20,878 nucleotides of DNA from Candidatus Helarchaeota archaeon. Its GTDB lineage: Archaea; Asgardarchaeota; Lokiarchaeia; Helarchaeales; RDOG01. The DNA lies in assembly GCA_029838215.1 (NCBI GenBank), contig JALGVI010000052.1, positions 1 to 20,878 on the forward strand, given 5' to 3'. The notes below the pieces were generated by a model, which saw only the letters and a program-made list of their open reading frames with translations, was not told where the DNA came from and ran no database searches. Each line of letters starts with the position of its first letter. The stretch's first letter is position 1. Both the position numbers and the translations under genes were made by a program. Of the stretch, positions 4,643 through 19,265 are shown piece by piece.

Positions 4643-5134
4643 TCAGGATTTTATCCTAAACTCATTTAATTGCAAGAAATTCTGAACGTGTTTGAAGAAA
4701 TTTCCAAAGAATTTACCACAACCGATGCGGTCTAGCTTTGGATTCTTCTTCACGTAGTCTAAAATATGAGGATATTGCTTAAATTTTTGAGGACTATTCA
4801 CGACTTTTTGAAAAATGGTCAAAAACCGCAGGTACAACACTTCAATATATGGTTTTATTGGTCGCTTTGCCTCAAAATCTTCGAGAACATGAGAATTTGT
4901 TGCTGTTAGCAATACTATGGCCGTTTGAGCAGCATCGAGGTGTAATAATCGCTCAAACATAATCTTATTTTCTTTTTGAGTGCCAAAAGACGAATCAACA
5001 GATATTCTTTCGGTGATGAAATCCATTAAATCTTGTCTGTATCGTGTTTTTTTTCGATTGGAGCTTGTTTTAGAATCTTGGAAATCTTTGATTTCTTTTA
5101 TTAATTCAAGAATTTCTGTCTTATCGTCCTTCAT
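4643..5134 (-). CDS. Hypothetical protein, predicted helical
   Basis: The ORF is open to 5143. The ATG at 5134 overlaps the JAB gene stop as ATGA, which suggests translational coupling. No motif recognised. Confidence 0.6.
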   Translation of the reverse strand: MKDDKTEILELIKEIKDFQDSKTSSNRKKTRYRQDLMDFITERISVDSSFGTQKENKIMFERLLHLDAAQTAIVLLTATNSHVLEDFEAKRPIKPYIEVLYLRFLTIFQKVVNSPQKFKQYPHILDYVKKNPKLDRIGCGKFFGNFFKHVQNFLQLNEFRIKS

Positions 5135-5799
5135 TTCAACCATTCATTCAGCCGCTTTCTTACCATTTTTTCACTCTTTTCAATGGTCTTCTTTCTAACC
5201 TTATAAACTAATAGGAAATAAGTCTTTAGGATGGCTTCACGTGCCTCCGTCTCGGAAGTGAAAGGTGTAATGACATGCGGGATTTCCCGATAACCATAAT
5301 GATGTTCCATGAACCGTAAGCGGAAAATGCGAAATCCCTCTTGTTCTCGTTCAAATGAAACGTGATCAAAAACGATGGCTATCGCCTTGGGATTGAGTTG
5401 TTGAAAACCCAACTGATTGATGATGTCCGTGTGAGAAAGAAAGAATCCCATTCCCGGATGGCTATGATACCAGCCCACGAAAAATTCCTCACGTTCTTTC
5501 TCCAACAAAAGGTCATTAACTTGGGCTGCAAAGACGTAATCTCTTTCCGAAAATTCCACGTGAACAGAACTTCCATGCGTTACTGGAATGGCATTTGTAA
5601 CCACGACCTCTTGAGTTTCTTCATCATTATATCCAATAATCAACCCATAGCACTCCTTCCATCTAAAGACGTGTTTCCTAAAGTTTGCGTGTTCCACGAC
5701 GTGCTGTATCATCTTTTTTAACGCGGAGAACTCAATGCGCACGGTCCACGCGAAATGCTTGTCAATAAAATCATCCAAATCCGAAATATTAATCACCAT
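5131..5799 (-). CDS. JAB/MPN+ (JAMM) metalloprotease, Rpn11/CSN5-like
   Basis: ECYGLIIG and GWYHSHPGMGFFLSHTD (5425-5472) form an intact E-xn-HxH-x7-S-x2-D motif, followed by Q..FQ....AIAIVFD. Open to TTG 5808, likely ATG at 5799. Confidence 0.9.
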   Translation of the reverse strand: MVINISDLDDFIDKHFAWTVRIEFSALKKMIQHVVEHANFRKHVFRWKECYGLIIGYNDEETQEVVVTNAIPVTHGSSVHVEFSERDYVFAAQVNDLLLEKEREEFFVGWYHSHPGMGFFLSHTDIINQLGFQQLNPKAIAIVFDHVSFEREQEGFRIFRLRFMEHHYGYREIPHVITPFTSETEAREAILKTYFLLVYKVRKKTIEKSEKMVRKRLNEWLK

Positions 5800-5916
5800 C
5801 AATTGCAAGAGAGATTACTTGTAGATTAATTTTTGACATAGCTACATCTTAACTTTTTATGCAAATTGTTTCTATTAGTTATTATCATCATCATCATCAA
5901 AAATGGATGTTTTCAA

Positions 5917-6414
5917 ATGAATGATGAGAATCGAATGGATGGTTTAACTCATTTAAAGAAAAAGGTCGAGCCACAAAAATATACATACGATCCGAAGCTT
6001 TTAGAACATTTTCCCAATAAATATCGAGATCGTGATTATTGGGTTTCCTTGACCTGTTTTGAATTCACCAGCTTGTGTCCTGTTACAGGTCAACCTGATC
6101 ATGCAACGATTTTCATCAATTATGTTCCTGATGAGTTCTTGATAGAGTCCAAATCATTAAAACTGTACTTGCAATCTTTTAGAAATGAAGGTGCCTTTAA
6201 CGAAGATCTCACAAACCGCATTCTCGATGATTTGATAAATCTAATAAATCCAAGGTACATGGAAGTCATTAGCGAATTCAATTCAAGAGGTGGGATAATC
6301 ATCATTCCATTCGTCAACTACGGAAAAGACCCTGACTGGAAAGAATTTGCCAAAGAACGGTTTTTAACGCGTGAATTGGAAACCTTCACGATCGAAGAAG
6401 AAGAATCAGAATAA
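5917..6414 (+). CDS. queF: NADPH-dependent 7-cyano-7-deazaguanine (preQ0) reductase, unimodular Bacillus type
   Basis: EFTSLCPVTGQPD (catalytic Cys/Asp), QueF signature ESKSLKLY (from 6145), FRNEGAFNED and RGGI..PFVNYG. ATG 5917 is preferred over the TTG 5866 extension. Confidence 0.93.
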   Translation: MNDENRMDGLTHLKKKVEPQKYTYDPKLLEHFPNKYRDRDYWVSLTCFEFTSLCPVTGQPDHATIFINYVPDEFLIESKSLKLYLQSFRNEGAFNEDLTNRILDDLINLINPRYMEVISEFNSRGGIIIIPFVNYGKDPDWKEFAKERFLTRELETFTIEEEESE

Positions 6415-6428
6415 CCATTAGGTCTGGT

Positions 6429-7562
6429 ATGATGTTTGATTTTCTATTAAAGGAAAAGACTGATGATGCTCGATGTTGCATCATGAAGACACCTCACGGT
6501 TCTGTTGAAACTCCTGCATTCATTTGTGTTGCAACGAAAGGAACGATTCGAAGTCTCTTTGCAAAAGATTTGGAAGAACTCGGTGCCCAACTTCTAATTG
6601 TAAATGCCATTCACGTTTTTCTAAAGCCAAGTGCCGATATCATTAAAAAAGCAGGAGGACTGCACGAATATATGGCATGGAAAAAGCCTCTCATCACGGA
6701 TTCTGGTGGTTTTCAAGTCATAAGTCCTCAATTTGGCGGCGTTGTCAAAGAAGAGGGAATTCGATTCAAATCACCTTATTATCCCGCAAAACATCATTTT
6801 ATCACGCCAGAAATCTCCATGCAGATGCAAGCCGATTTGGGTGCTGACATTGTAATGGCCTTTGATGAATGCCCTGCATATGGCGGAGCTAATGACCGTT
6901 CTTACATGGAAAGTTCTTTAGAACGTACGGCGCGCTGGCTAAAATCGTGTAGAGAATATAATATCAAGAATAACGGAAGACAGGCATTATTCGGAATCGT
7001 GCAAGGCGGGAGTTTTCTTGATCTCAGAAAAAAAAGCCTTGAATTAACACTAAATGCCGGATCATTACCAGGTTATGCGTTAGGTGGTCTGAGCGTGGGA
7101 GAGCCGCAAGACGTTCGGTTCAAAATACTCAAAGAAATAACGCCGCTACTACCTCCTGAAAAGCCGCGCTATTTGATGGGTGTCGGCACGCCCGAAGATA
7201 TACTCGAAGGCGTTGAACACGGAATTGATCTCTTTGATTCCGTTTATCCCACTAAAATTGCTCGACATGGATCTGTTTTCACTCATGAAGGCATCAAGCA
7301 CATCGATTCAATGAATCATTATAATGATCTTGGTCCAATTGACCCCGAATGCAACTGTTTTATTTGTCAAACGTATTCCCTGTCTTATGCATGCCATCTA
7401 TTTCGAGATCCTGCCACGTATCTAACTGGTGCACGAATGCTGATTTATCACAACCTGCATTTCTTATTGAAATTAATGCAAGACATTAGGGAATCCATAC
7501 GCGCTAATACTTTTCGTGAATTCAAAGCTGAATTTCTGAAATCTTACAAAAAAAGGCATTAG
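6429..7562 (+). CDS. tgt: tRNA-guanine transglycosylase, bacterial (queuosine, G34) type
   Basis: TDSGGFQV, AFDEC, GIVQGG, GGLSVGE, PRYLMGVG, DLFDSVYPT and zinc site CNCFIC...HN. At 377 aa it lacks the PUA-containing extension of archaeosine TGT. Confidence 0.93.
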   Translation: MMFDFLLKEKTDDARCCIMKTPHGSVETPAFICVATKGTIRSLFAKDLEELGAQLLIVNAIHVFLKPSADIIKKAGGLHEYMAWKKPLITDSGGFQVISPQFGGVVKEEGIRFKSPYYPAKHHFITPEISMQMQADLGADIVMAFDECPAYGGANDRSYMESSLERTARWLKSCREYNIKNNGRQALFGIVQGGSFLDLRKKSLELTLNAGSLPGYALGGLSVGEPQDVRFKILKEITPLLPPEKPRYLMGVGTPEDILEGVEHGIDLFDSVYPTKIARHGSVFTHEGIKHIDSMNHYNDLGPIDPECNCFICQTYSLSYACHLFRDPATYLTGARMLIYHNLHFLLKLMQDIRESIRANTFREFKAEFLKSYKKRH

Positions 7563-7724: not shown

Positions 7725-8738
7725 ATGGAGTTCTTTCAACCGGGATTATCTGCTGAGAAAAATGAAAAAGAAGAGGCTTCTCCGAAATCATCTTTCAATT
7801 CCCAAGTCGAAGAAGAATTAAGATCCCGGATTTCTTCTCTGAACCAAGAAATCGCGACCCTAAAGCAATCATTAGAAGAAATGAAAAAACAGATTGTAAC
7901 ATTAAAGCGGGAGCATAAAGCCGAAATTCTCGAACAACAGGCACAAATAAAGGAAAAAAGTCGAGAAGTAAAAAGCGTCAAACACGAATTAAATGAACTC
8001 AAATCAAAAAGACGCTTGCTTCAGTTGAATCAGGAAAAAACTGAAAAGAATCTGATGGAACAGGTCAAGGAATTTACCGAGCTAACGGCTAAATTGCAAA
8101 AAGAGATAGAAGAAAAGGACGTTCAGTATAGGCTCTTAAAAAGAGAAATTGAAGAAAAAACGAACGCATTGGATGCAAGCGAATCGTTAAAAAAAGAGAA
8201 TGAAGAGCTAGCTGAAAAGTTAAAACAACAGCAGGAGAAAATGGTTCACGAAAAAGCACTAATCAAGGTCTTAGAAAGTCGGATTGCTGAATTAGAGCTC
8301 CAGATTCACGATGTTGATCAAGTTGAAGAATTAAAGAATGAAATTCAACGACTAGAAATTGAAAACATGGCAATGCGCAAGGAAAAAGAGCAAATTCTGG
8401 AAAAAAATAAAAAACTTCACTTGAAAATGCAGAAGGCATTGAGCTCCGCCAAGAAACTCGAACAGCAGGAAGATCAAATGAACATGATTCAAACACGGAA
8501 TAAAGCATTGCTAAATAAAATTAAAAATCTTAATGAAGAAATAGTCTCACTTAAAACCGAGAACGAAAAACTCCTCGAAATCAAGGAACGAGTTCATCAG
8601 CTCGAAGAAGAATCAATTCAGGATTTTTCGTCCATCAAGTCTGAACTTGAAAAATTAAAACAAGAAAACACGGCGTTGAAAGAAAAATTATCTAAAAAAG
8701 AGATACGGGTTTACACGATAAAAATTCAAGAAAAATAA
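7725..8738 (+). CDS. Long coiled-coil protein of unknown function
   Basis: About 300 aa of E/K/L/Q-rich heptads, no Walker A motif, short beta-like tail IRVYTIKI. Confidence 0.75.
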   Translation: MEFFQPGLSAEKNEKEEASPKSSFNSQVEEELRSRISSLNQEIATLKQSLEEMKKQIVTLKREHKAEILEQQAQIKEKSREVKSVKHELNELKSKRRLLQLNQEKTEKNLMEQVKEFTELTAKLQKEIEEKDVQYRLLKREIEEKTNALDASESLKKENEELAEKLKQQQEKMVHEKALIKVLESRIAELELQIHDVDQVEELKNEIQRLEIENMAMRKEKEQILEKNKKLHLKMQKALSSAKKLEQQEDQMNMIQTRNKALLNKIKNLNEEIVSLKTENEKLLEIKERVHQLEEESIQDFSSIKSELEKLKQENTALKEKLSKKEIRVYTIKIQEK

Positions 8739-8756: not shown

Positions 8757-9713
8757 CTATTTTACTTCTAGCAATTTTTGTTTCCATGTATCTAATACTT
8801 GCTTGAACTCCTCAATTTCACGTTGTGTAAGACTTTCTGTCTTCCTTGCTTTAAAAATCCTGGCTGATTTTCCCATTTCGTATAAAATTGGGGTCCACTT
8901 GTAATTTTCACTCAAATATTTCTTTGTTTTTTCTAGCGTAACTGCCAAATCCCTGGCAATTTCACCGACTTGAATTTGAACTAATGCATCAAATATTTGA
9001 TTTATTAAGTCTGTTCCCGTGACTGAATTATCAGCGAAAATTTTGCCTATTATTGCTTTATAATCTGCACCCGAAGCCGCTACGGACGAAGTCGATAGAT
9101 CTGCATCCAACTCCGAAACTGCACTCATCAAGGCCGTTTCGTCCTGTGGTTTGGTCTCAATTGGAAGTTTTGTAGTTGTGGCAACTGTTGTATTGGTAGA
9201 TGACGCTTGAACGGGATTTGCAACTGCTGCGGGTGTTGCATTGGCTTGCACATTCTTAATTGGAGCAGATCGCAAGAGTTGCTTAAACTGCTGAAGTTCT
9301 GCTGAAATATCCATTCTATCCAAGCGATCAAGTTTCCTATTCAATTCATCCATGGTCTTTTGAAGATTCTTATTAAAATATTTCATCTCCGCTACGAGAT
9401 TTTCAACCTTTTCGATGCGAGCAACTGTCATCATCATTCGTTCCAAGGTCGTTGCAAACTCGCCCATTCGTCCAATTAATGTCAATCCGATCTTTTCAAA
9501 AGCATCACTTAACCGTTTCATTGCTTGGTTAATGGATTCAATATCTCCCTTCTCAAAAACAGGACCCGGCGCGGGTTTGGGTGCAACACCAAGTTCCGCT
9601 TTTACGTGGTCAGGTAATTGATCTAATACTTCCTGTGGTATCTCCTGATTTTTTGCGGTTTCCTTTTTTGAATCAGGGGGTTGATTTTTCTCAGACAAAA
9701 AGTTATCCTCCAT
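8757..9713 (-). CDS. Hypothetical protein: coiled coil, Ala/Thr/Pro-rich linker, helical C-terminal domain
   Basis: 318-aa ORF with an AGG-containing leader and modular composition. No family recognised. Confidence 0.7.
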   Translation of the reverse strand: MEDNFLSEKNQPPDSKKETAKNQEIPQEVLDQLPDHVKAELGVAPKPAPGPVFEKGDIESINQAMKRLSDAFEKIGLTLIGRMGEFATTLERMMMTVARIEKVENLVAEMKYFNKNLQKTMDELNRKLDRLDRMDISAELQQFKQLLRSAPIKNVQANATPAAVANPVQASSTNTTVATTTKLPIETKPQDETALMSAVSELDADLSTSSVAASGADYKAIIGKIFADNSVTGTDLINQIFDALVQIQVGEIARDLAVTLEKTKKYLSENYKWTPILYEMGKSARIFKARKTESLTQREIEEFKQVLDTWKQKLLEVK

Positions 9714-9816
9714 GTTTCCTTGAAAGCATTTTTTTTAAGATATTCCTAATTTGGTCTTTGAATTAATCATCATGCTACTTAATTTTTCGTGTTATGTTGA
9801 ACATTGGAAACAACAA

Positions 9817-9826
9817 TTTTATTAAA
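9817..9826 (+). promoter_or_regulatory. Candidate TATA box for the histone gene
   Basis: TTTTATTAAA preceded by an A-rich BRE-like stretch, about 52 nt upstream of ATG 9879. Confidence 0.35.
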
Positions 9827-9878
9827 CTATCGTCAATTAATAACAAGGATTTATCATGAAAGAGGAGAATCCTTAGAA

Positions 9879-10106
9879 ATGAGAAAAACTGAAAGAATTA
9901 TACCTCTTGCTCCATTAGATCGACTCATACGCGAAGCCAAGGCTGAAAGGGTATCCGAGAAAGCCTCTAAAGAACTGGGTGAAATTCTCGAAGAAATTGC
10001 TCTAGAAATCGCCACGATGGCAAAAGACCTCGCACAACACGCACATCGAAAAACTATTAATGACTCTGATATTCGACTGGCGTTCAAACAATGGAAGAAT
10101 AAATGA
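9879..10106 (+). CDS. Archaeal histone (HMf/HTk family), 75 aa
   Basis: IPLAPLDRLIR..AERVS...LEE...A..LAQHAHRKTINDSDI is the HMfB histone-fold pattern. ATG 9879 follows the RBS GAGGAG (9862-9867), so the upstream TTG 9804 extension is unlikely. Confidence 0.95.
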   Translation: MRKTERIIPLAPLDRLIREAKAERVSEKASKELGEILEEIALEIATMAKDLAQHAHRKTINDSDIRLAFKQWKNK

Positions 10107-10286: not shown

Positions 10287-11171
10287 TCAAGGGGAAATGA
10301 TCGGCATTACTCGTTTTTCCATTTGCATTTCTTTCATCACTATATCTGTCAGTAGCTTTGCCCGTTCTTTACCTGTCAACGTTTCGAGTTTTCTGATTCC
10401 CAACGGATCGACTTTTTCTCTTAACAACTGAATTTCCCGAACGGTCGGTATCTCTGTTTCAGGCACGTTATCAGGAATTATTAATTCAAAGCCTGTATTC
10501 TGTTGAACCTGTTCCACCGTAATACCCGGGTGAACCGATTTAATCATCATTCTCTTGGTTTTCTCATCAAATCCCAGAACCGCTAGATCCGTGATTACAA
10601 TTTGTGGACCTGCTCCACCGCAAATTGATGGCTTTCCATCCTGAAAACCCACGCCCGAAATGAAAAACAATTTCTCACTAGGGACGAACGTCCGTGAATC
10701 GTGCCTTGTAACGTATAAGTATTGACCTTTTTTATAGAACATGCTGAAATCCCCGATTCCTGCGCATCCCGGTAATCGAATTTTCGGTTTATTCCAATCA
10801 CCAATACAGATGTTATTCGTGTTTCCATATTGGTCTATTTGCGCAGGTCGAAAGAATTCTATCGTTGTAAGCGTATCGTGAGGTAACAATTCAATCGTGC
10901 ATTCACCACTATTGTGTTTCCTGTATGCACGTTGCACATTGGTGTTTTCAAGCCAAAGCAACGAAACTTGTCGCGGTTCCAAGACGAAAGTGTTTCCCAT
11001 GATATAGTGGAAGATGGCTTTCGGTGCATGTGTGACTTTAGCCAGCGTAAATGCTGCCCAAACGCAAGGCGTGGCAACACCCACGATCATGACATCGTCG
11101 TTGGTAACCTGACGTGCCATCTGAACCGTAATCATCTCATCAATCGTATAATCTTTTGAATACTCAACCAT
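10287..11171 (-). CDS. Family I CoA-transferase beta-subunit homolog (GctB/AibB/IpdB-like), non-canonical
   Basis: GVATP, THAP, AQIDQYGNTN, RLPGCAG, ITDLAV, SVHPG..VEQVQQNTGF and VDPLG. ATG 11171 follows GAGGTG. Open to GTG 11180. Confidence 0.85.
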   Translation of the reverse strand: MVEYSKDYTIDEMITVQMARQVTNDDVMIVGVATPCVWAAFTLAKVTHAPKAIFHYIMGNTFVLEPRQVSLLWLENTNVQRAYRKHNSGECTIELLPHDTLTTIEFFRPAQIDQYGNTNNICIGDWNKPKIRLPGCAGIGDFSMFYKKGQYLYVTRHDSRTFVPSEKLFFISGVGFQDGKPSICGGAGPQIVITDLAVLGFDEKTKRMMIKSVHPGITVEQVQQNTGFELIIPDNVPETEIPTVREIQLLREKVDPLGIRKLETLTGKERAKLLTDIVMKEMQMEKRVMPIISP

Positions 11172-11181
11172 GATCTGCACC

Positions 11182-12036
11182 TCATGTCTTAATGTTTAAA
11201 ATCGTTTTTACTCCTCCAACTGCTTCTAAATATTCAGCATTCGACTTGCCCGTAATGAATTTCTTACGATACTCTTCAAAGGGAGTACTCACGTATTCCT
11301 GAATGTGGAGTGGATCAAAGGAGTAGTCCGGAAAACAACTGGTAGGATGAGCACCATAAGGTAACTTTACAACCGCATCGACTTTTTGCATCGGAATTTG
11401 TGCAGTTCCTTGGGACCTGATAATGTCTTCTGTTTCTACTATTCTTTCACAAGTGATGATGGTTTTTTTGGCTGTTTTTGCCAAATCATCATCGATCCAT
11501 ACAACTCCCGCAACATTTCCGTTTCCCTTTTCATCCGCATAAGGAACGTGGATGATTGCCACGTCTAACTGAATGGGTGGCAGGGCCATTAGAGGCTCAT
11601 TGTTCAACGGATCGTTAAATTGTTTCATGTCAGGACGTACTTTTGGGATGTCTGTCCCAATGATCCCTTTTAAAGGCATGAAAGGAAGCCGCAAATACGT
11701 GGCTTTTAACCCCAAAACAATTGATGCTTCTGTTTCTTCATATATTTTTATACGACCTTCTTCAACTGCCTTTCTATGATTAGGGGCTAAACCAAATAAT
11801 TCCATGCCTACAAAACTACATCTCACCTTGTTGCAGCATCCTGCTCCAATTAACATGTCGGTACAAATGCCTCCAACGAAAGAAACTACACCTAAATCCT
11901 TCTTATTCTGACGAATTATCTCTCTCGTGATTCCAACGGCTTTTCTCCAGAAGCTCAATCCACCAATCCCGACCCAGTCGCCATCTTGGACGTAGGTGGA
12001 AACAGCTTCTTCTAAAGACATGATCTTATCAACCAA
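11182..12036 (-). CDS. Family I CoA-transferase alpha-subunit homolog (GctA/AibA/IpdA-like)
   Basis: MSLEEAV..YVQDGD.VGIGG, RK, DVAIIH...ADEKGN and GAHPTSC. The ORF is open to ATG 12129, but TTG 12036 follows GAGG and matches the usual family N-terminus. Confidence 0.87.
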   Translation of the reverse strand: MVDKIMSLEEAVSTYVQDGDWVGIGGLSFWRKAVGITREIIRQNKKDLGVVSFVGGICTDMLIGAGCCNKVRCSFVGMELFGLAPNHRKAVEEGRIKIYEETEASIVLGLKATYLRLPFMPLKGIIGTDIPKVRPDMKQFNDPLNNEPLMALPPIQLDVAIIHVPYADEKGNGNVAGVVWIDDDLAKTAKKTIITCERIVETEDIIRSQGTAQIPMQKVDAVVKLPYGAHPTSCFPDYSFDPLHIQEYVSTPFEEYRKKFITGKSNAEYLEAVGGVKTILNIKT

Positions 12037-12439
12037 GTTCAATCGCCTCGTTAAGACTTCTCTAAAATGATTAGAATTTGGATATCCTGTAATAGAGTAA
12101 TACTTCAGAATATCTCTTTCATTTCTCATTTTAAGAAATTGAATAAAAAGATTATTCGTGCTACGAACTCGAATCTAAATTATCACAGATTTTACTCATC
12201 TTGACCATTCACGTGATTTTTTCGTTCAGAAGGATGTGAAAAACTTGATTAACCTGAGAAATCAAACCGAAGACTTGAAATGATCCTGACGTTGTATTAA
12301 AGAAAACCTTGAAAATCGAGAACTAATCAATGGTATTAATAACTCATGCTTAAACGAAAATCTTTATTTAATTCTTCAAAATCAATTAACAATGATCGTC
12401 GTTTTTGAGTGCTTTCGGAAAAATGAGAAGTGATGAATA

Positions 12440-14101: not shown

Positions 14102-14215
14102 GATTCCTCATCTCTCTACAAGAATAAGATGGGTTTAAATTTATAAGTTCAAGCTGAGGGATCATTATATTAAAGACATATTTAAAATATCATGAAGAAA
14201 CAAAGGCAGGCTCTC

Positions 14216-14890
14216 ATGACACGGGCAATTGTGGTTTTATCAGGTGGAATGGACTCCACGACCGTTGCAGGAATCTTGCATGCCAAAGGGTATGAGATTT
14301 ACGGGATAACGGTCGACTATCTTCAACGGACTTCGAAAAAGGAATTGGATTGTGCTAAAAAAGTCGGGGAATTTTATGGATTCAAGGATCACCTTTTTAT
14401 TAATCTGAGTTTCATGAAAGAAATCTTGAAGGATTCGACATCATTAATCGATGAGAAACTTGAAATTCCAACCGAATCATCTGAAGATGAAATCCCAAAT
14501 ACTTATGTTCCCTTTCGAAATACCATCATTCTCTCTCTTGCTGTAGCGTGGGCTGAGACTCTCAATGCTGAGTTGATAGGAATTGGTGTCAATGCTCTAG
14601 ACTATTCTGGCTATCCCGATTGCCGTCCCGAATATATCGAAGCATTTGAAAAAGTGGCAAGACTGGGGACAAAACCTAATTATGCACCACAAATTTTCAC
14701 GCCATTACAACACATGTCGAAAGCAGAAATTGTAAAAAAAGCCGTTGAATTGGGAGTTCCATTGGATTTAACTTGGTCTTGTTACCAAAACCAAGAAAAA
14801 GCATGTGGTACGTGCGAATCTTGCCAATTACGCATTAAAGGTTTTAAAGAAGCTGGAGTGACTGACCCGATCCCCTACGAATCGACTTGA
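14216..14890 (+). CDS. queC: 7-cyano-7-deazaguanine synthase
   Basis: SGGMDS PP-loop, TYVPFRN, YSGYPDCRPEY and zinc ligands SCY...CGTCESC..R. Upstream in-frame ATG at 14192 is an alternative start. Confidence 0.95.
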   Translation: MTRAIVVLSGGMDSTTVAGILHAKGYEIYGITVDYLQRTSKKELDCAKKVGEFYGFKDHLFINLSFMKEILKDSTSLIDEKLEIPTESSEDEIPNTYVPFRNTIILSLAVAWAETLNAELIGIGVNALDYSGYPDCRPEYIEAFEKVARLGTKPNYAPQIFTPLQHMSKAEIVKKAVELGVPLDLTWSCYQNQEKACGTCESCQLRIKGFKEAGVTDPIPYEST

Positions 14891-14918: not shown

Positions 14919-16505
14919 TTATTTTTTTGCACTGATATAGAAGCCCGAGTCTGCAACTGCGTTCGGATCGAACATTGCTTTTATTTTACGGAGCCACAAA
15001 TGATAATTTGAGCATTGAGGACCATACCAGTCGTGCATTTCATCACCTTCAATGAAGAAGGGAATGCCCAGTCGTTCTTCAAGATCCAATTGATTACATT
15101 CCATTAGATATTCTGCCATGCCCTTGATGCTTTCTCTATCTGTTTGGTCATACATTGTCGGCATCTCTGCATGAAAGAAATGTCCGTGCTCAAAAGATTC
15201 TGTCCACACACCTTCGCCCCTGTCGTCTGCCAGAACTCCTTTTTTAATGTACTTGCGTTTTAAAGGAATATTCGCTTGCATGATGTGCTTGCAGAAATTA
15301 ATGGTATCCATTGCTCCATGCGTGCTTTGAAATGCTCCTGTTGCAAGGAAGCCGTGCATGCCTAACGCAGATCGAAGTGCTTCAGCATACGAAATCTTAG
15401 GAGGCGTGAATTTCTTTCTTCCTGCTAATGCCGTTACATCCTTGAGTCCGAGTTCTTCTACTATTGCGGCAAGTGCTTTTTCCTTATAATCAAATTCTCG
15501 TTGCGTTCGTGCAACGATCATTACTAAGACGGGATTTTTTATTCGCGAATAAATCGAGATTTTTTGCAACATTTCTTCTTTCGTCGGGGAAAAGAGGCAC
15601 ATGAGTGCAAAATTACTGGCATGAAATACCATGAAAGCAATTTCTTCTTCTGCAATCCGTAGAAGTGCTTTTTCGACTTCGTCATAGTCCCGCAAGCTAA
15701 ATATGTGGTATCGCATTAATTCAATGCTTTCAAGGTCATACTTGGGTATGGTTCCTTTAATCTTATTAAAGATCGTGGGTTCACACGGAAACGGAAACAA
15801 TCGAATTGCAACGCGCGTGAAAACGCCCAATCCTGACTTCGTTCCGGTAAATCCTCGCATGATGCCTCGAAGACTTGGTCCGGGACCATCACCATGAAAC
15901 CAGTCAGGATCATCTGTCAAGCCGAGTGAGCCAATTTGTAATACTTCTCCTGTTGGTAATACCCACTCAGTACCCAACACGTTTCGTCCGCTAAATCCTG
16001 TATTTGAAGAGGTAAATCCGGGACCACACATTGAAGTGGCACTTGCTAAAGGAGAAACTTGTGGACCTGCTCCGGGCATGTGACAATTCAAACCGTGCTT
16101 GAGGAGTTCCGCTTGAAGCTGTGCGCCCGTGACGTATGGTTCAACGACAGCATATAGATTTTTCTCGTCAATTTTGACGATTTTATTCATTCTCCTCATG
16201 TCCAGAACGATGGATTTTTCAGAGCTGGGTTGATTCCAAGGTCCCAGTCCCGTTGATTGTGCCTTGAATTGCAATCCGTGCTTGTTGCAAAGTTTTACTA
16301 TTTGAACGACTTCTTCCGTTGAGCCGGGTAAAATCACTGCAGCAGGAGTTATGTAGAATGGAATGGGTTCTTTTCCTTCAATTTCGTTAAGGAATTCCAC
16401 GCACCAATTATAAGTATACGTTTCTAAGATTGCCTTATTGGTGGAAATATTACTTGGACCTACAACGGCTTCAAAATCTTTATATTGTGCTTCATTTAGG
16501 ACCAT
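14919..16505 (-). CDS. FAD-binding oxidoreductase (VAO/GlcD superfamily, FAD_binding_4)
   Basis: PAAVILPGSTEEV..IVKLCN, LDMRRMNKIVKID, VEPYVT, VLPTGEV, GVFTR and C-terminal FDPN. Confidence 0.85.
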   Translation of the reverse strand: MVLNEAQYKDFEAVVGPSNISTNKAILETYTYNWCVEFLNEIEGKEPIPFYITPAAVILPGSTEEVVQIVKLCNKHGLQFKAQSTGLGPWNQPSSEKSIVLDMRRMNKIVKIDEKNLYAVVEPYVTGAQLQAELLKHGLNCHMPGAGPQVSPLASATSMCGPGFTSSNTGFSGRNVLGTEWVLPTGEVLQIGSLGLTDDPDWFHGDGPGPSLRGIMRGFTGTKSGLGVFTRVAIRLFPFPCEPTIFNKIKGTIPKYDLESIELMRYHIFSLRDYDEVEKALLRIAEEEIAFMVFHASNFALMCLFSPTKEEMLQKISIYSRIKNPVLVMIVARTQREFDYKEKALAAIVEELGLKDVTALAGRKKFTPPKISYAEALRSALGMHGFLATGAFQSTHGAMDTINFCKHIMQANIPLKRKYIKKGVLADDRGEGVWTESFEHGHFFHAEMPTMYDQTDRESIKGMAEYLMECNQLDLEERLGIPFFIEGDEMHDWYGPQCSNYHLWLRKIKAMFDPNAVADSGFYISAKK

Positions 16506-17804
16506 TTATTTCTCCTCCATTGCCATTAAGATCAGTTCGCTTATATCATAAAACTTCATTTTCGAGTTACTGGCTTCAATGGCATCTTTCAGGTTTGTTT
16601 CACAAAAAGGACACGCTGATGCTAAAACTGTTGCACCAGTTGATTCGGCTTCATCGAGTCGCCGCTTTGCCGTGTTTAGTGCAAACTCGGGAAACTGTGC
16701 TTTGCACCCGCCTCCTGCACCGCAACAATATGAATATTCTTTAATACGTTCCATTTCCTTTAATGTCAGTCCCGGAATATTATGAAGGACTTCTCTAGGT
16801 GGTTCATATACGCCATTTGTTCCACGTCGAATTGGTTTTGGAGGAATATCCATGTAAACTGTCGGCATTGGTTGAACCGTTTTTCCGTGCCACTCTTCAT
16901 AGGGCTCCGAACATCGCCCTAAATGACACGGGTCGTGATATGTTACTTCCATTGGAACATTTTTTGTCAATTTGAGTTTACCATCACTGATCAATTGGGC
17001 GAAAAGTTCCGTTGAGTGTAATAATTCAAAATCGTACTTGCGATGACGTGCATATTCTGCTTTGAACGTGCTGTAACATCCTGCACAGCTCATTATGACC
17101 TTTTTGACTCCTTTCTTCTTGAACAGGTCAAGGTTATAGTCCATTAATGGTTCGAATTTATCGATCTGACCTGTTCTGTACACTGGACTTCCACAGCAGC
17201 GTTCCTCTTCCAAAATATCAAATTCTACACCTGCCTTAGTGAGAACGCGAGCCGTTGCAATTGCAATTTCTTGTCTGCGATATGAAGATGTACAACCAAC
17301 ATAATAAACCGTAGTTGCACCTTTTGTCAGTTTTATATCATCTGGAATCCAATCAAGCCGTTTCGAATGTTCCTCATTGTAAGGATTAAATTTCTCGACG
17401 GTTATTTCACCATATATCTTTTGTTTATCCATTGGCCCTATCCCTGCTTGACAGAGCTTTTCACGTAATTCTTGAATGACCTCTAACGGCTCTAAATTGT
17501 TGAGATACTTGCAAGCCGTTGCACAACCACCGCATTCCGTGCATTTAAATACAATATCAGCAATATCTTGAGAAAGTTCCATTCGTCCGAAATACAAGGA
17601 ACACGCCAAGATGATTTTTCCACCGCCACTATAAGAATGAAAATTAAACTCGTCTATTGCAGGACAAATCGAAGCGTATTTCTGGCTTTTTATTTGAATT
17701 TGCGGAATCCACTTACAAATCGAACAACGAAGGCATTTCTGGATTGATTGCTCATACTCTGATTCGTAATGTTTTTTATCTGATTCTGTTCCCATTGCAT
17801 TCAT
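16506..17804 (-). CDS. Fe-S oxidoreductase, GlcF/HdrD-like (two 4Fe-4S motifs plus two CCG domains)
   Basis: CLRCSIC..CP, CTECGGCATAC, YVGC..CCG..CAGC and YHDPCHLGR..CCGAGGG..ACPFC. Its TAA abuts the next ATG. Confidence 0.9.
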   Translation of the reverse strand: MNAMGTESDKKHYESEYEQSIQKCLRCSICKWIPQIQIKSQKYASICPAIDEFNFHSYSGGGKIILACSLYFGRMELSQDIADIVFKCTECGGCATACKYLNNLEPLEVIQELREKLCQAGIGPMDKQKIYGEITVEKFNPYNEEHSKRLDWIPDDIKLTKGATTVYYVGCTSSYRRQEIAIATARVLTKAGVEFDILEEERCCGSPVYRTGQIDKFEPLMDYNLDLFKKKGVKKVIMSCAGCYSTFKAEYARHRKYDFELLHSTELFAQLISDGKLKLTKNVPMEVTYHDPCHLGRCSEPYEEWHGKTVQPMPTVYMDIPPKPIRRGTNGVYEPPREVLHNIPGLTLKEMERIKEYSYCCGAGGGCKAQFPEFALNTAKRRLDEAESTGATVLASACPFCETNLKDAIEASNSKMKFYDISELILMAMEEK

Positions 17805-17807
17805 CTC

Positions 17808-19265
17808 CTACTTTTTAAAACACAACACTCCTGGTTGTAATACTCCATTTGGATCGAAAATTTGCTTGACTTTGTTTAATGCCTGTGCCGTAATTGGTGA
17901 ATGGTGTTTGTATGCTTCCTCTGCCCAAGGTCCATACGGTCGGTTGAAAAACGCTCCTGCGTCCATCAACTTCTTGCTAAGTGTCAGAAAGACTTCTTTC
18001 GCTTTCTTAACCTCATCTCCGTTCTTCGGGTCGAAATACAAGTCCAATTCTAAATGAAAGGACGTGCCCTGCACGATTGGTTGGAGATACACGCCCCATT
18101 TGAAATCAGGATAATCATTTATCATTCCAATAAACTTCTGAACCTTTTCATAAGGCGTGATGAAGAAAATATCTTGACAACCTTCTGTAAGTCGCAATTT
18201 CCACGGCTTATCCGTACAGCTTGTTAATACATCAAGTATTTCATCATTTTTTATTCCCGTAATTTCCTCTGTAACGGTCAATCCTAATTCTTTGAGAATA
18301 TCACCAATATCTCCTTCTAGATAATCTATCTTGTCTTGAGCGACTTTTCCCCGTCCCGTGAGTTGAAAGATCAAGATCCACTTCGGAAGTTTTTCTGAAA
18401 GTGAAATGATCTCACTCGGATCGGCTTTCACGAGTGCTGCAAGATTCAAGTTGTTTAATATGACCACTTCATCGCATAGCCTGTACTTGATGAGACGATG
18501 TTGTAATTCCATGATGTCTTCAAGCTTATCCGTAGCAAGAAATTTCAACTTCTGAATCGTTGGTTTAAATTCAACTTTCAGAGTGGCCCACGTCACTATT
18601 CCCATCGAACCTTGTGCGCCCTGGATGACTCTATAAGGACTGAATTGCGTGGGTCCCATCGGATTTTTCTGCACTGCTCCTGCTTCTAATTGTTCCTCTA
18701 ACGATCCGGGACCTGCTGCTGAACCCGTCCGAAACTGATCTCCCGTTCCAAAAATCACTTCCGTGCATAACAACGGATCTGAACTGTCCCACTGATAGCG
18801 TGGAATGGTTGTTGGTTCTCGCTCAAGAGCTGCTGTTAAAACGGACTTGGAAGCCCGAGGACATAACGGCATCAATAAACGGAGTCCTGCTTTTTGCACT
18901 TCGGGGAGAAGCTGGGCAAACGTAACTCCCGGTTCAACCATGATCTCCCGATTTTTAGCATCAATGCGCAAGATTTTATTCATTTTCGATAAATCAATGA
19001 TGACGGCGTTGTCTACTTGTGGAATCGTGTCTCCATGTGCTCGAGGTCCTTGCGGCGAACTCACGGGAACTATGGCAAAATTCATCTCATTTGCCAACTT
19101 GACGACCTGCTCAACCTGAGCTGATGTTTCAGGTGAAACAATGGCTTTAGGTGCTTTTCCAGAAACAAAGCTTAAATCAAAAGAAAAATTAAGAATCAAA
19201 TCTTCATTTGTCGAAACGTTGTTTGCACCACAAATTTGTTGCAACTTGTTAATTAATTCTGACAT
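17808..19265 (-). CDS. FAD-binding oxidoreductase (VAO/GlcD superfamily), second paralog
   Basis: PKAIVSPETSAQV, IDLSKMNKILRID, VEPGVT, QGAQGSMGIVT and FDPNGVLQPG. RBS AGGAG. Confidence 0.85.
   Translation of the reverse strand: MSELINKLQQICGANNVSTNEDLILNFSFDLSFVSGKAPKAIVSPETSAQVEQVVKLANEMNFAIVPVSSPQGPRAHGDTIPQVDNAVIIDLSKMNKILRIDAKNREIMVEPGVTFAQLLPEVQKAGLRLLMPLCPRASKSVLTAALEREPTTIPRYQWDSSDPLLCTEVIFGTGDQFRTGSAAGPGSLEEQLEAGAVQKNPMGPTQFSPYRVIQGAQGSMGIVTWATLKVEFKPTIQKLKFLATDKLEDIMELQHRLIKYRLCDEVVILNNLNLAALVKADPSEIISLSEKLPKWILIFQLTGRGKVAQDKIDYLEGDIGDILKELGLTVTEEITGIKNDEILDVLTSCTDKPWKLRLTEGCQDIFFITPYEKVQKFIGMINDYPDFKWGVYLQPIVQGTSFHLELDLYFDPKNGDEVKKAKEVFLTLSKKLMDAGAFFNRPYGPWAEEAYKHHSPITAQALNKVKQIFDPNGVLQPGVLCFKK

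Follow-up and report, generated by a model that had tools for sequence, protein, structure and literature searches.

The pair of neighbouring genes queF and tgt described here raises the question whether an archaeon can synthesize queuosine (Q) at the wobble position 34 of its tRNAs, a modification that reviews still place in Bacteria and Eukarya and not in Archaea (e.g. PMC8879553). The two genes are located on one strand of a 20.9 kb stretch of DNA, hereafter the window, which is the entire contig C134 of the Asgard metagenome-assembled genome (MAG) G000 (3.62 Mb, 170 contigs, completeness 94.3%). They code for a reductase of 7-cyano-7-deazaguanine (preQ0) and for a bacterial-type tRNA-guanosine(34) transglycosylase (bTGT, EC 2.4.2.29). 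In addition, the genome contains queC, queA and queH, genes for a FolE2/MptA-type cyclohydrolase and for QueD- and QueE-like proteins as well as arcTGT, hence, a complete de novo route towards Q34 is encoded together with the use of preQ0 for archaeosine at G15. Given the presence of queC, queA and queH, the synthesis of preQ1 followed by modification of G34, as put forward in the original prediction, is the best reading of this gene content. We therefore regard it as likely that the Asgard genome harbors a bacterial-type queuosine module with the mechanism and the history outlined below.

The window TGT could be assigned by family models, structures and pocket residues. It reaches 428.1 bits with TIGR00430 (cut-off 306.75) and 423.8 bits with Pfam TGT, while the arcTGT model TIGR00432 yields 124.5 bits at a cut-off of 350. 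One single Pfam TGT domain spans residues 13-374 of 377, in agreement with the length of about 370-390 aa of bTGTs; a PUA domain is lacking, as originally noted, and no additional C-terminal domain is present. Among proteins of known structure, the TGTs of T. maritima (2ash, 323 bits), of the E. coli type (315 bits) and of Z. mobilis (305 bits) score highest, followed by human/mouse QTRT1 (252 bits), QTRT2 (77 bits) and the P. horikoshii arcTGT (50 bits). Residues were assigned by alignment to the Z. mobilis, E. coli-type and T. maritima structures. In Z. mobilis numbering, the catalytic Asp280 and Asp102 and the substrate-binding Asp156 and Gly230 are kept (residues 270, 91, 146 and 220 of the window protein), as are the zinc ligands Cys318, Cys320, Cys323 and His349 (residues 308, 310, 313 and 341). 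The pocket contains Cys158, Leu231, Ser232, Val233 and Glu235 within the motifs FDEC and GGLSVGE; the Cys of the former is residue 148 (codon from 6870) and the Val of the latter residue 223 (codon from 7095), exactly where they had been predicted. The corresponding pattern GLSVE is also the commonest among the compared TGTs (64/129), and none of the catalytic, zinc-binding or preQ1-pocket residues is exchanged in any TGT of the order, one gapped row aside. Leu231/Ala232 have been described as determinants for preQ1, while a Val/Val pair confers the preQ0 specificity of arcTGT; similarly, Cys158/Val233 characterizes prokaryotic and Val/Gly eukaryotic TGTs (PMC5699537). These features support the assignment as G34-type TGT with a preQ1 pocket, for which exchange of G34 for preQ1 in tRNAs with U33-G34-U35 is predicted. 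Other identities were considered and rejected. An arcTGT is incompatible with the score below the cut-off, the lack of C1/C2/PUA domains and the Leu/Ser pocket, and a QTRT1 with the kept Cys/Val pair, the separate clade and a tree test against the union of both groups (see below). With a threshold of E <= 0.001, the NCBIfam hits of the window TGT did not include DpdA (NF041059).

The second gene of the pair codes for a true QueF. The protein scores 164.5 bits with TIGR03139 (cut-off 86.9) and 105 bits with Pfam QueF, and it can be aligned end-to-end with B. subtilis QueF (PDB 4f8b) at 167 bits, while the QueF-L structure 5jyx gives merely 22 bits. QueF-L, the crenarchaeal archaeosine synthase, is a T-fold protein with Cys and Asp but without the NADPH-binding QueF motif. 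This identity was rejected for the window protein, because the motif is present and because of the two structure scores. In agreement with the original prediction, the alignment to 4f8b verified the catalytic Cys55 and Asp62 (SLCPVTGQPD) and the NADPH-binding motif ESKSLKLY, which fits the consensus E(S/L)K(S/A)hK(L/Y)(Y/F/W); Glu97 (NED) is kept as well, and all these positions are invariant in 120/120 homologues. One difference had been overlooked, the auxiliary His96 of B. subtilis QueF (His229 in E. coli), a member of the proposed Cys-Asp-His triad, is replaced by Asn (residue 90, 6184-6186). His is found at this position in 112/120 homologues, Asn in the window QueF and two close relatives, and Ser in five further archaeal relatives (the copy at locus L070 counted). 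A 2026 review calls this His auxiliary and reports that H96A/F variants of gkQueF and H229A ecQueF retain activity on preQ0 (PMC13740343). Since these mutants stay active, the window QueF with its Asn is expected to be active too. His96 is hence auxiliary and not family-defining, and the protein still fits QueF type I. Judged from the alignment, the change from His96 to Asn/Ser is a lineage-specific alteration of the proposed proton relay. The QueF tree (FastTree) was poorly resolved, with the QueF of the same-family genome G001 as a very long branch, and yields no inference on a donor.

Most of the other genes that belong to such a pathway were found in the same genome. QueA was identified with TIGR00113 (330.7 bits, cut-off 267) and NF001140 (361.7 bits, cut-off 324), and QueH with its Pfam model (220 bits, cut-off 23.5); both genes are adjacent at C75:24523-26084, next to an archaeal-type three-domain ATP-dependent DNA ligase. 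For QueG (TIGR00276), which was not found, the genome contains weak Fe-S matches below the cut-off, and QueH fills this step. QueC scores 210.8 bits with TIGR00364 (cut-off 150.3) and 243.8 bits with Pfam QueC. FolE (PF01227) was not found in the genome, which contains a GCHY-1 (FolE2/MptA-type) cyclohydrolase gene with 206 bits, a QueD-like gene (Pfam PTPS, 80 bits) and a QueE-like radical-SAM gene. A Ras/Rab-like small GTPase gene (TIGR00231, 92.8 bits), which fits an Asgard genome, is situated 260 nt 3' of the QueD-like gene (L051, G000:C46:5348-8773). A true arcTGT is encoded on contig C112 (501 bits, cut-off 350), while nothing above the cut-off was obtained in the genome for ArcS (NF040592), and there was no sign of QueF-L or GAT-QueC. 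Also encoded are a divergent TGT-like paralogue of 343 aa, with 41 bits to arcTGT and 39 bits to ArcS, and a 169-aa open reading frame matching the C-terminal region of ArcS (model positions 443-574); the regions concerned, together with that of arcTGT, are C112:76686-77690, C89:26886-27512 and C130:33680-34123.

The mechanism proposed here is deduced from the family membership of these proteins. The FolE2/MptA-type cyclohydrolase, the QueD-like and QueE-like proteins and QueC would produce preQ0, which would be the branch point between arcTGT and QueF. While arcTGT would insert preQ0 at G15 of tRNAs, QueF would reduce preQ0 with NADPH to preQ1. A homodimeric bTGT would then swap G34 for preQ1 in the tRNAs with GUN anticodons (Asp, Asn, His, Tyr), and QueA followed by QueH would lead from preQ1 via epoxyqueuosine to queuosine. 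Two genes of substrate tRNAs, tRNA-Asn(GUU) and tRNA-Asp(GUC), are present in the genome, in which the search with Rfam RF00005 detected 28 tRNAs; the whole-genome analysis with aragorn recovered few of them because of introns. Both GUN tRNA genes, G000:C160:27809-27925 (-) and C43:2253-2354 (+), are interrupted. According to aragorn, an intron of 46 nt splits the anticodon of tRNA-Asp(GUC) between positions 35 and 36, and one of 14 nt follows position 38 of tRNA-Asn(GUU). For these intron-bearing tRNAs, it could matter whether splicing precedes or follows the exchange of G34.

It has to be considered whether queF and tgt belong to an archaeal chromosome at all. They might stem from a bacterial contaminant or from a chimeric assembly with archaeal DNA, because the estimated contamination of the MAG amounts to 6.2%, the closest named TGT homologues outside archaea are from Bacillota (46-50% identity), and another Asgard MAG (G188) does carry a bTGT on a short, high-GC, contaminant-like contig. 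However, the same neighbourhood recurs on contigs of other assemblies. In G001 (5.8 Mb, 10 contigs), the genes for a Zn-ribbon protein, the JAB/MPN protein, QueF, TGT, a 318-aa protein and the histone are collinear on a contig of 1.48 Mb (C3). A 481 kb contig of GCA_011365055.1, labelled Candidatus Lokiarchaeota archaeon by NCBI, contains two CoA-transferase genes, JAB, queF, tgt, MaoC and histone, the order JAB-queF-tgt is also found on a 29.8 kb contig of the European Nucleotide Archive, and in the second assembly GCA_054384155.1 the order of the genes is unchanged over all 21 kb, on a contig of 44.8 kb. Moreover, GC content and tetranucleotide usage of the queF-tgt contig C134 and of the queA-queH contig C75 are typical of the genome (ranks 33 and 39 of 170), and the branching of the TGTs mirrors the family structure of the order. 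The artefact explanation, to which we assign hardly any probability, is refuted for practical purposes; the contig belongs to a genuine archaeal chromosome and is not chimeric. The nearest homologues of TGT, QueF and QueA (74%, 68% and 60% identity) are named Candidatus Helarchaeales/Helarchaeota archaeon by NCBI, where Helarchaeales is part of the Asgard phylum, there called Promethearchaeota. The host likely belongs to Helarchaeales, in line with the originally proposed archaeal, probably Asgard, chromosome.

The distribution of bTGT among Asgard archaea was analyzed with the TIGR00430 cut-off in 41 genomes (G000 and 40 relatives) and then in 400 genomes of the phylum. In the smaller set, all seven genomes of the order of the window carry a bTGT above the cut-off, and the remaining 34 genomes of the same class have arcTGT alone or no match. 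Across the phylum, only one of 393 other genomes had a bTGT, namely G188, and no bTGT orthologues spread across Heimdallarchaeia/Hodarchaeales and other Asgard classes and branching as sister to QTRT1 were seen among the 400 genomes. The G188 copy (locus L043, G188:C91:1-3376), which adjoins the fragment of an Opp/Dpp-type ABC ATPase gene, is a probable contaminant, since its contig is 3.4 kb long with a GC content of 54-58% and the copy itself clusters with sequences from bacteria. A pattern-based contig scan gave merely scattered bacterial TGTs of 34-47% identity, which were used as named bacterial rows in the trees alone. The distribution of QueF is narrower. Among six genomes of the order searched, it is limited to the family of the window; it was not detected in G002, G003, G004 and G006, which belong to other families and all have bTGT, while queA was found in four of the six genomes, including the QueF-less G004 and G006. 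Evidently, TGT can function without a resident QueF in these four genomes, and the families lacking it probably rely on salvage of preQ1/preQ0. The restriction to one family and the position directly upstream of tgt indicate that QueF is probably a later addition.

The original prediction had also suggested that the TGT might be ancestral in Asgard archaea and would then bear on the origin of the eukaryotic enzyme. TGT trees with bacterial TGTs and QTRT1 were calculated with 129 rows and with 78 rows under the model LG+C20+F+G4 with posterior mean site frequencies (PMSF), both unrooted. The Helarchaeales TGTs are monophyletic (support 100/98); within the clade, the branching order corresponds to the family codes, which is consistent with vertical descent. 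Their sister group is an archaeal clade of 14 cluster representatives (joint support 100/99); NCBI lists two of the clusters as Thermoplasmata archaeon. Archaeal markers (thermosome, rpL35Ae, Sec61-beta, RFC, TFIIB, Gar1, PolB) were found on five of six sister-clade contigs examined. On two of these contigs (L048 and L068) tgt adjoins queA, and L048 also carries queH; L048 has a thermosome gene, and its tgt and queA are separated by an inserted VapBC toxin-antitoxin pair, and on L068 Sec61-beta and RFC occur on the tgt-queA contig. Likewise, the nearest named homologues of QueA are from Helarchaeales, Thermoplasmata, Hydrothermarchaeota and Lokiarchaeota, mixed with Bacillota. As a clade, the archaeal TGTs join the tree between sequences from bacteria, close to Bacillota-type enzymes (support 92/60), while the named QTRT1 proteins (Salix, Eriocheir, Cardiosporidium, Streblomastix) form a clade of their own elsewhere, among other bacterial sequences.

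A G34-type TGT inherited from the Asgard ancestor, with eukaryotic QTRT1 derived from it or closely related to it, would fit the Asgard host and the common superfamily, for which the 252 bits to human/mouse QTRT1 are an expression. However, the gene was found in one order only, in seven of seven genomes as opposed to one probable contaminant among the 393 others searched, bacterial TGTs score higher (305-323 bits) than QTRT1, and the Cys158/Val233 pair forms a preQ1-type pocket and not the Val/Gly pocket of QTRT1 (PMC5699537). In addition, the QTRT1 proteins of plant, crab, apicomplexan and oxymonad form the separate clade mentioned above, and forcing Helarchaeales and eukaryotes into one clade costs 196.8 log-likelihood units and is rejected by the approximately unbiased test (p-AU 4.3e-14). 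This origin is thus very improbable; the queuosine module has no connection with the emergence of eukaryotic QTRT1, and the idea that G34-TGT passed from Asgard archaea to eukaryotes is closed off. Instead, tree and gene distribution argue for a lateral acquisition of TGT, with an archaeal bTGT subclade spreading between archaeal phyla. The TGT was probably gained in a single event in the common ancestor of the order, with vertical inheritance thereafter, as part of a bTGT clade that would circulate among archaea and branches nearest to Bacillota-type enzymes. With the probably later addition of QueF, dependence on salvage would have given way to de novo synthesis. At 50 bits, arcTGT is too remote to serve as the outgroup of a rooted tree, and we therefore make no claim on the direction of transfer. 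Collectively, the original interpretation was supported regarding the identity of the enzymes, including the distinction from QueF-L, arcTGT, DpdA and QTRT1, the host and, on genomic grounds, the function, but failed regarding Asgard ancestry and eukaryotic origin.

Several points weigh against the proposed queuosine pathway and its history. To our knowledge, queuosine has never been demonstrated in archaeal tRNA. Neither the QueD-like nor the QueE-like protein reaches its NCBIfam equivalog cut-off, aragorn and RF00005 recovered no tRNA-His or tRNA-Tyr gene from the incomplete MAG, and the exchange of His96 in QueF and the contamination estimate have to be added. Furthermore, the node that joins the archaeal clade to Bacillota-type sequences, and with it any assignment of a bacterial donor, has a support of 92/60, and the unrooted tree gives no direction to transfers among archaea.

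Some of these points touch on another possibility, in which the genes are archaeal but the module does not perform canonical de novo Q34 synthesis. TGT might then insert preQ0 or a salvaged base or act at another position, or QueF with Asn instead of His96 might have an altered chemistry or replace the missing archaeosine synthase. QueA and QueH have no substrates other than preQ1-tRNA and oQ-tRNA, and the genome encodes both of them in intact form, which speaks against such an alternative use of the module. The missing QueF in four other TGT-bearing genomes of the order, the presence of arcTGT while no ArcS exceeds the cut-off, and the loss of His96 in the archaeal QueF clade would be in its favor. 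However, TGT keeps the preQ1-type Leu231/Ser232 and not the Val/Val of arcTGT (PMC5699537), QueF keeps its motif and resembles the B. subtilis enzyme far more than QueF-L (167 vs 22 bits), and QueF His mutants are still active (PMC13740343). Taken together, a non-canonical function of the module appears unlikely to us, though less so than the two explanations discussed before, and de novo Q34 synthesis remains preferred.

Compared with known systems, the bacterial de novo pathway of B. subtilis and T. maritima is most similar. It comprises the same enzyme set in the QueH version, a unimodular YkvM-type QueF and the same TGT pocket (Cys158/Val233, Leu231/Ser232), with 46-50% identity of Bacillota TGTs to the window protein. 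In contrast, the present pathway is found in an Asgard host with arcTGT alongside, QueF has Asn at the position of His96, TGT belongs to an archaea-only subclade, and the genes are scattered, with queC 6.6 kb away from queF-tgt and queA-queH on another contig. The archaeosine system (TgtA plus ArcS, QueF-L or GAT-QueC) shares preQ0 made by QueC and a homologous TIM-barrel/zinc transglycosylase, but C1/C2/PUA are absent from the window TGT, whose pocket shows Leu/Ser as determinants for preQ1, and the NADPH motif missing from QueF-L is found in the window QueF. QTRT1/QTRT2 have the fold, the catalytic Asp residues, the zinc site and G34 of GUN tRNAs as target in common with the window TGT, but the eukaryotic enzyme differs by its Val/Gly queuine pocket, the heterodimer with QTRT2 and its separate clade. 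Bacterial queuosine pathways, either in full or in part (QueA, QueH, Tgt), have been described in 34 archaeal genomes including DPANN and Methanosarcinales (Castelle et al. 2021, PMC8204110). These archaea likewise possess Tgt, QueA and QueH, in some cases co-localised, and the pathways are, as here, known from genomes alone. The present case differs by the Helarchaeales-type Asgard host, as the main text of that study names no Asgard carriers, by the presence of QueF and QueC, which would permit de novo synthesis and not the last three steps alone, and by order-wide vertical inheritance of a TGT clade shared with Thermoplasmata-labelled genomes.

A full-text search found no literature report of queuosine in Asgard archaea or Lokiarchaeota. 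New are the presence, order-wide inheritance and de novo completeness of the pathway in Helarchaeales, the archaeal bTGT subclade common to Helarchaeales and Thermoplasmata-type genomes, and the QueF variant with Asn/Ser instead of His96. We lean slightly towards the more general view that wobble Q is a regular, vertically inherited trait of an Asgard order and of other archaea (Thermoplasmata-type, Hydrothermarchaeota-type), brought about by an archaea-specific clade of G34 transglycosylases that acts beside arcTGT on a shared preQ0 pool. If true, the textbook absence of Q from Archaea would be overturned, and archaea would possess a QueF variant (His96 to Asn/Ser) with a possibly altered proton relay. 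One cell would then have to divide preQ0 between the modification of G15 and that of G34. The locus supplies concrete genes for asking whether archaeal tRNAs bear Q.

The features in the window are compiled in Table 1. Coordinates, strand and 14-nt spacing (6415-6428) of queF and tgt agree with those given originally, and the use of a second Met at 6432 would shorten TGT to 376 aa. QueC was called at 224 aa in the second assembly (GCA_054384155.1). The JAB/MPN gene is a conserved neighbour that anchors queF-tgt in the archaeal synteny, and the histone gene, located 2.3 kb 3' of tgt as had been stated before, is a context marker of an archaeal chromosome outside the queuosine pathway.

Table 1. 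Features annotated in the 20.9 kb window.
Feature	Position	Strand	Evidence
queF, unimodular (YkvM-type) NADPH-dependent preQ0 reductase (preQ1 synthase), 165 aa	5917-6414	+	TIGR03139, Pfam QueF
tgt, bacterial-type tRNA-guanosine(34) transglycosylase, 377 aa	6429-7562	+	TIGR00430, Pfam TGT
queC, 7-cyano-7-deazaguanine (preQ0) synthase	14192-14890, alternative start 14216	+	TIGR00364, Pfam QueC
JAB/MPN (Rpn11-like) protein, divergent from queF	5131-5808	-	Pfam JAB 63.6 bits
archaeal histone	9804-10106, probable start 9879	+	NF043032 86.3 bits (cut-off 50)

Between tgt and the histone gene, the window codes for a 337-aa coiled-coil protein with weak SMC/ASRP-like matches (7725-8738, +) and for a 318-aa protein without family (8757-9713, -), which has a counterpart near tgt in G001 with 35% identity. 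A pair of CoA-transferase subunits is encoded at 10287-12129, and related genomes likewise have this pair close to queF-tgt. Finally, three co-directional genes at 14919-19265 (-) code for two FAD_binding_4 proteins (GlcD/D-lactate dehydrogenase-like) and one CCG/4Fe-4S protein (HdrD/GlcF-like), which probably form a 2-hydroxyacid oxidoreductase complex.

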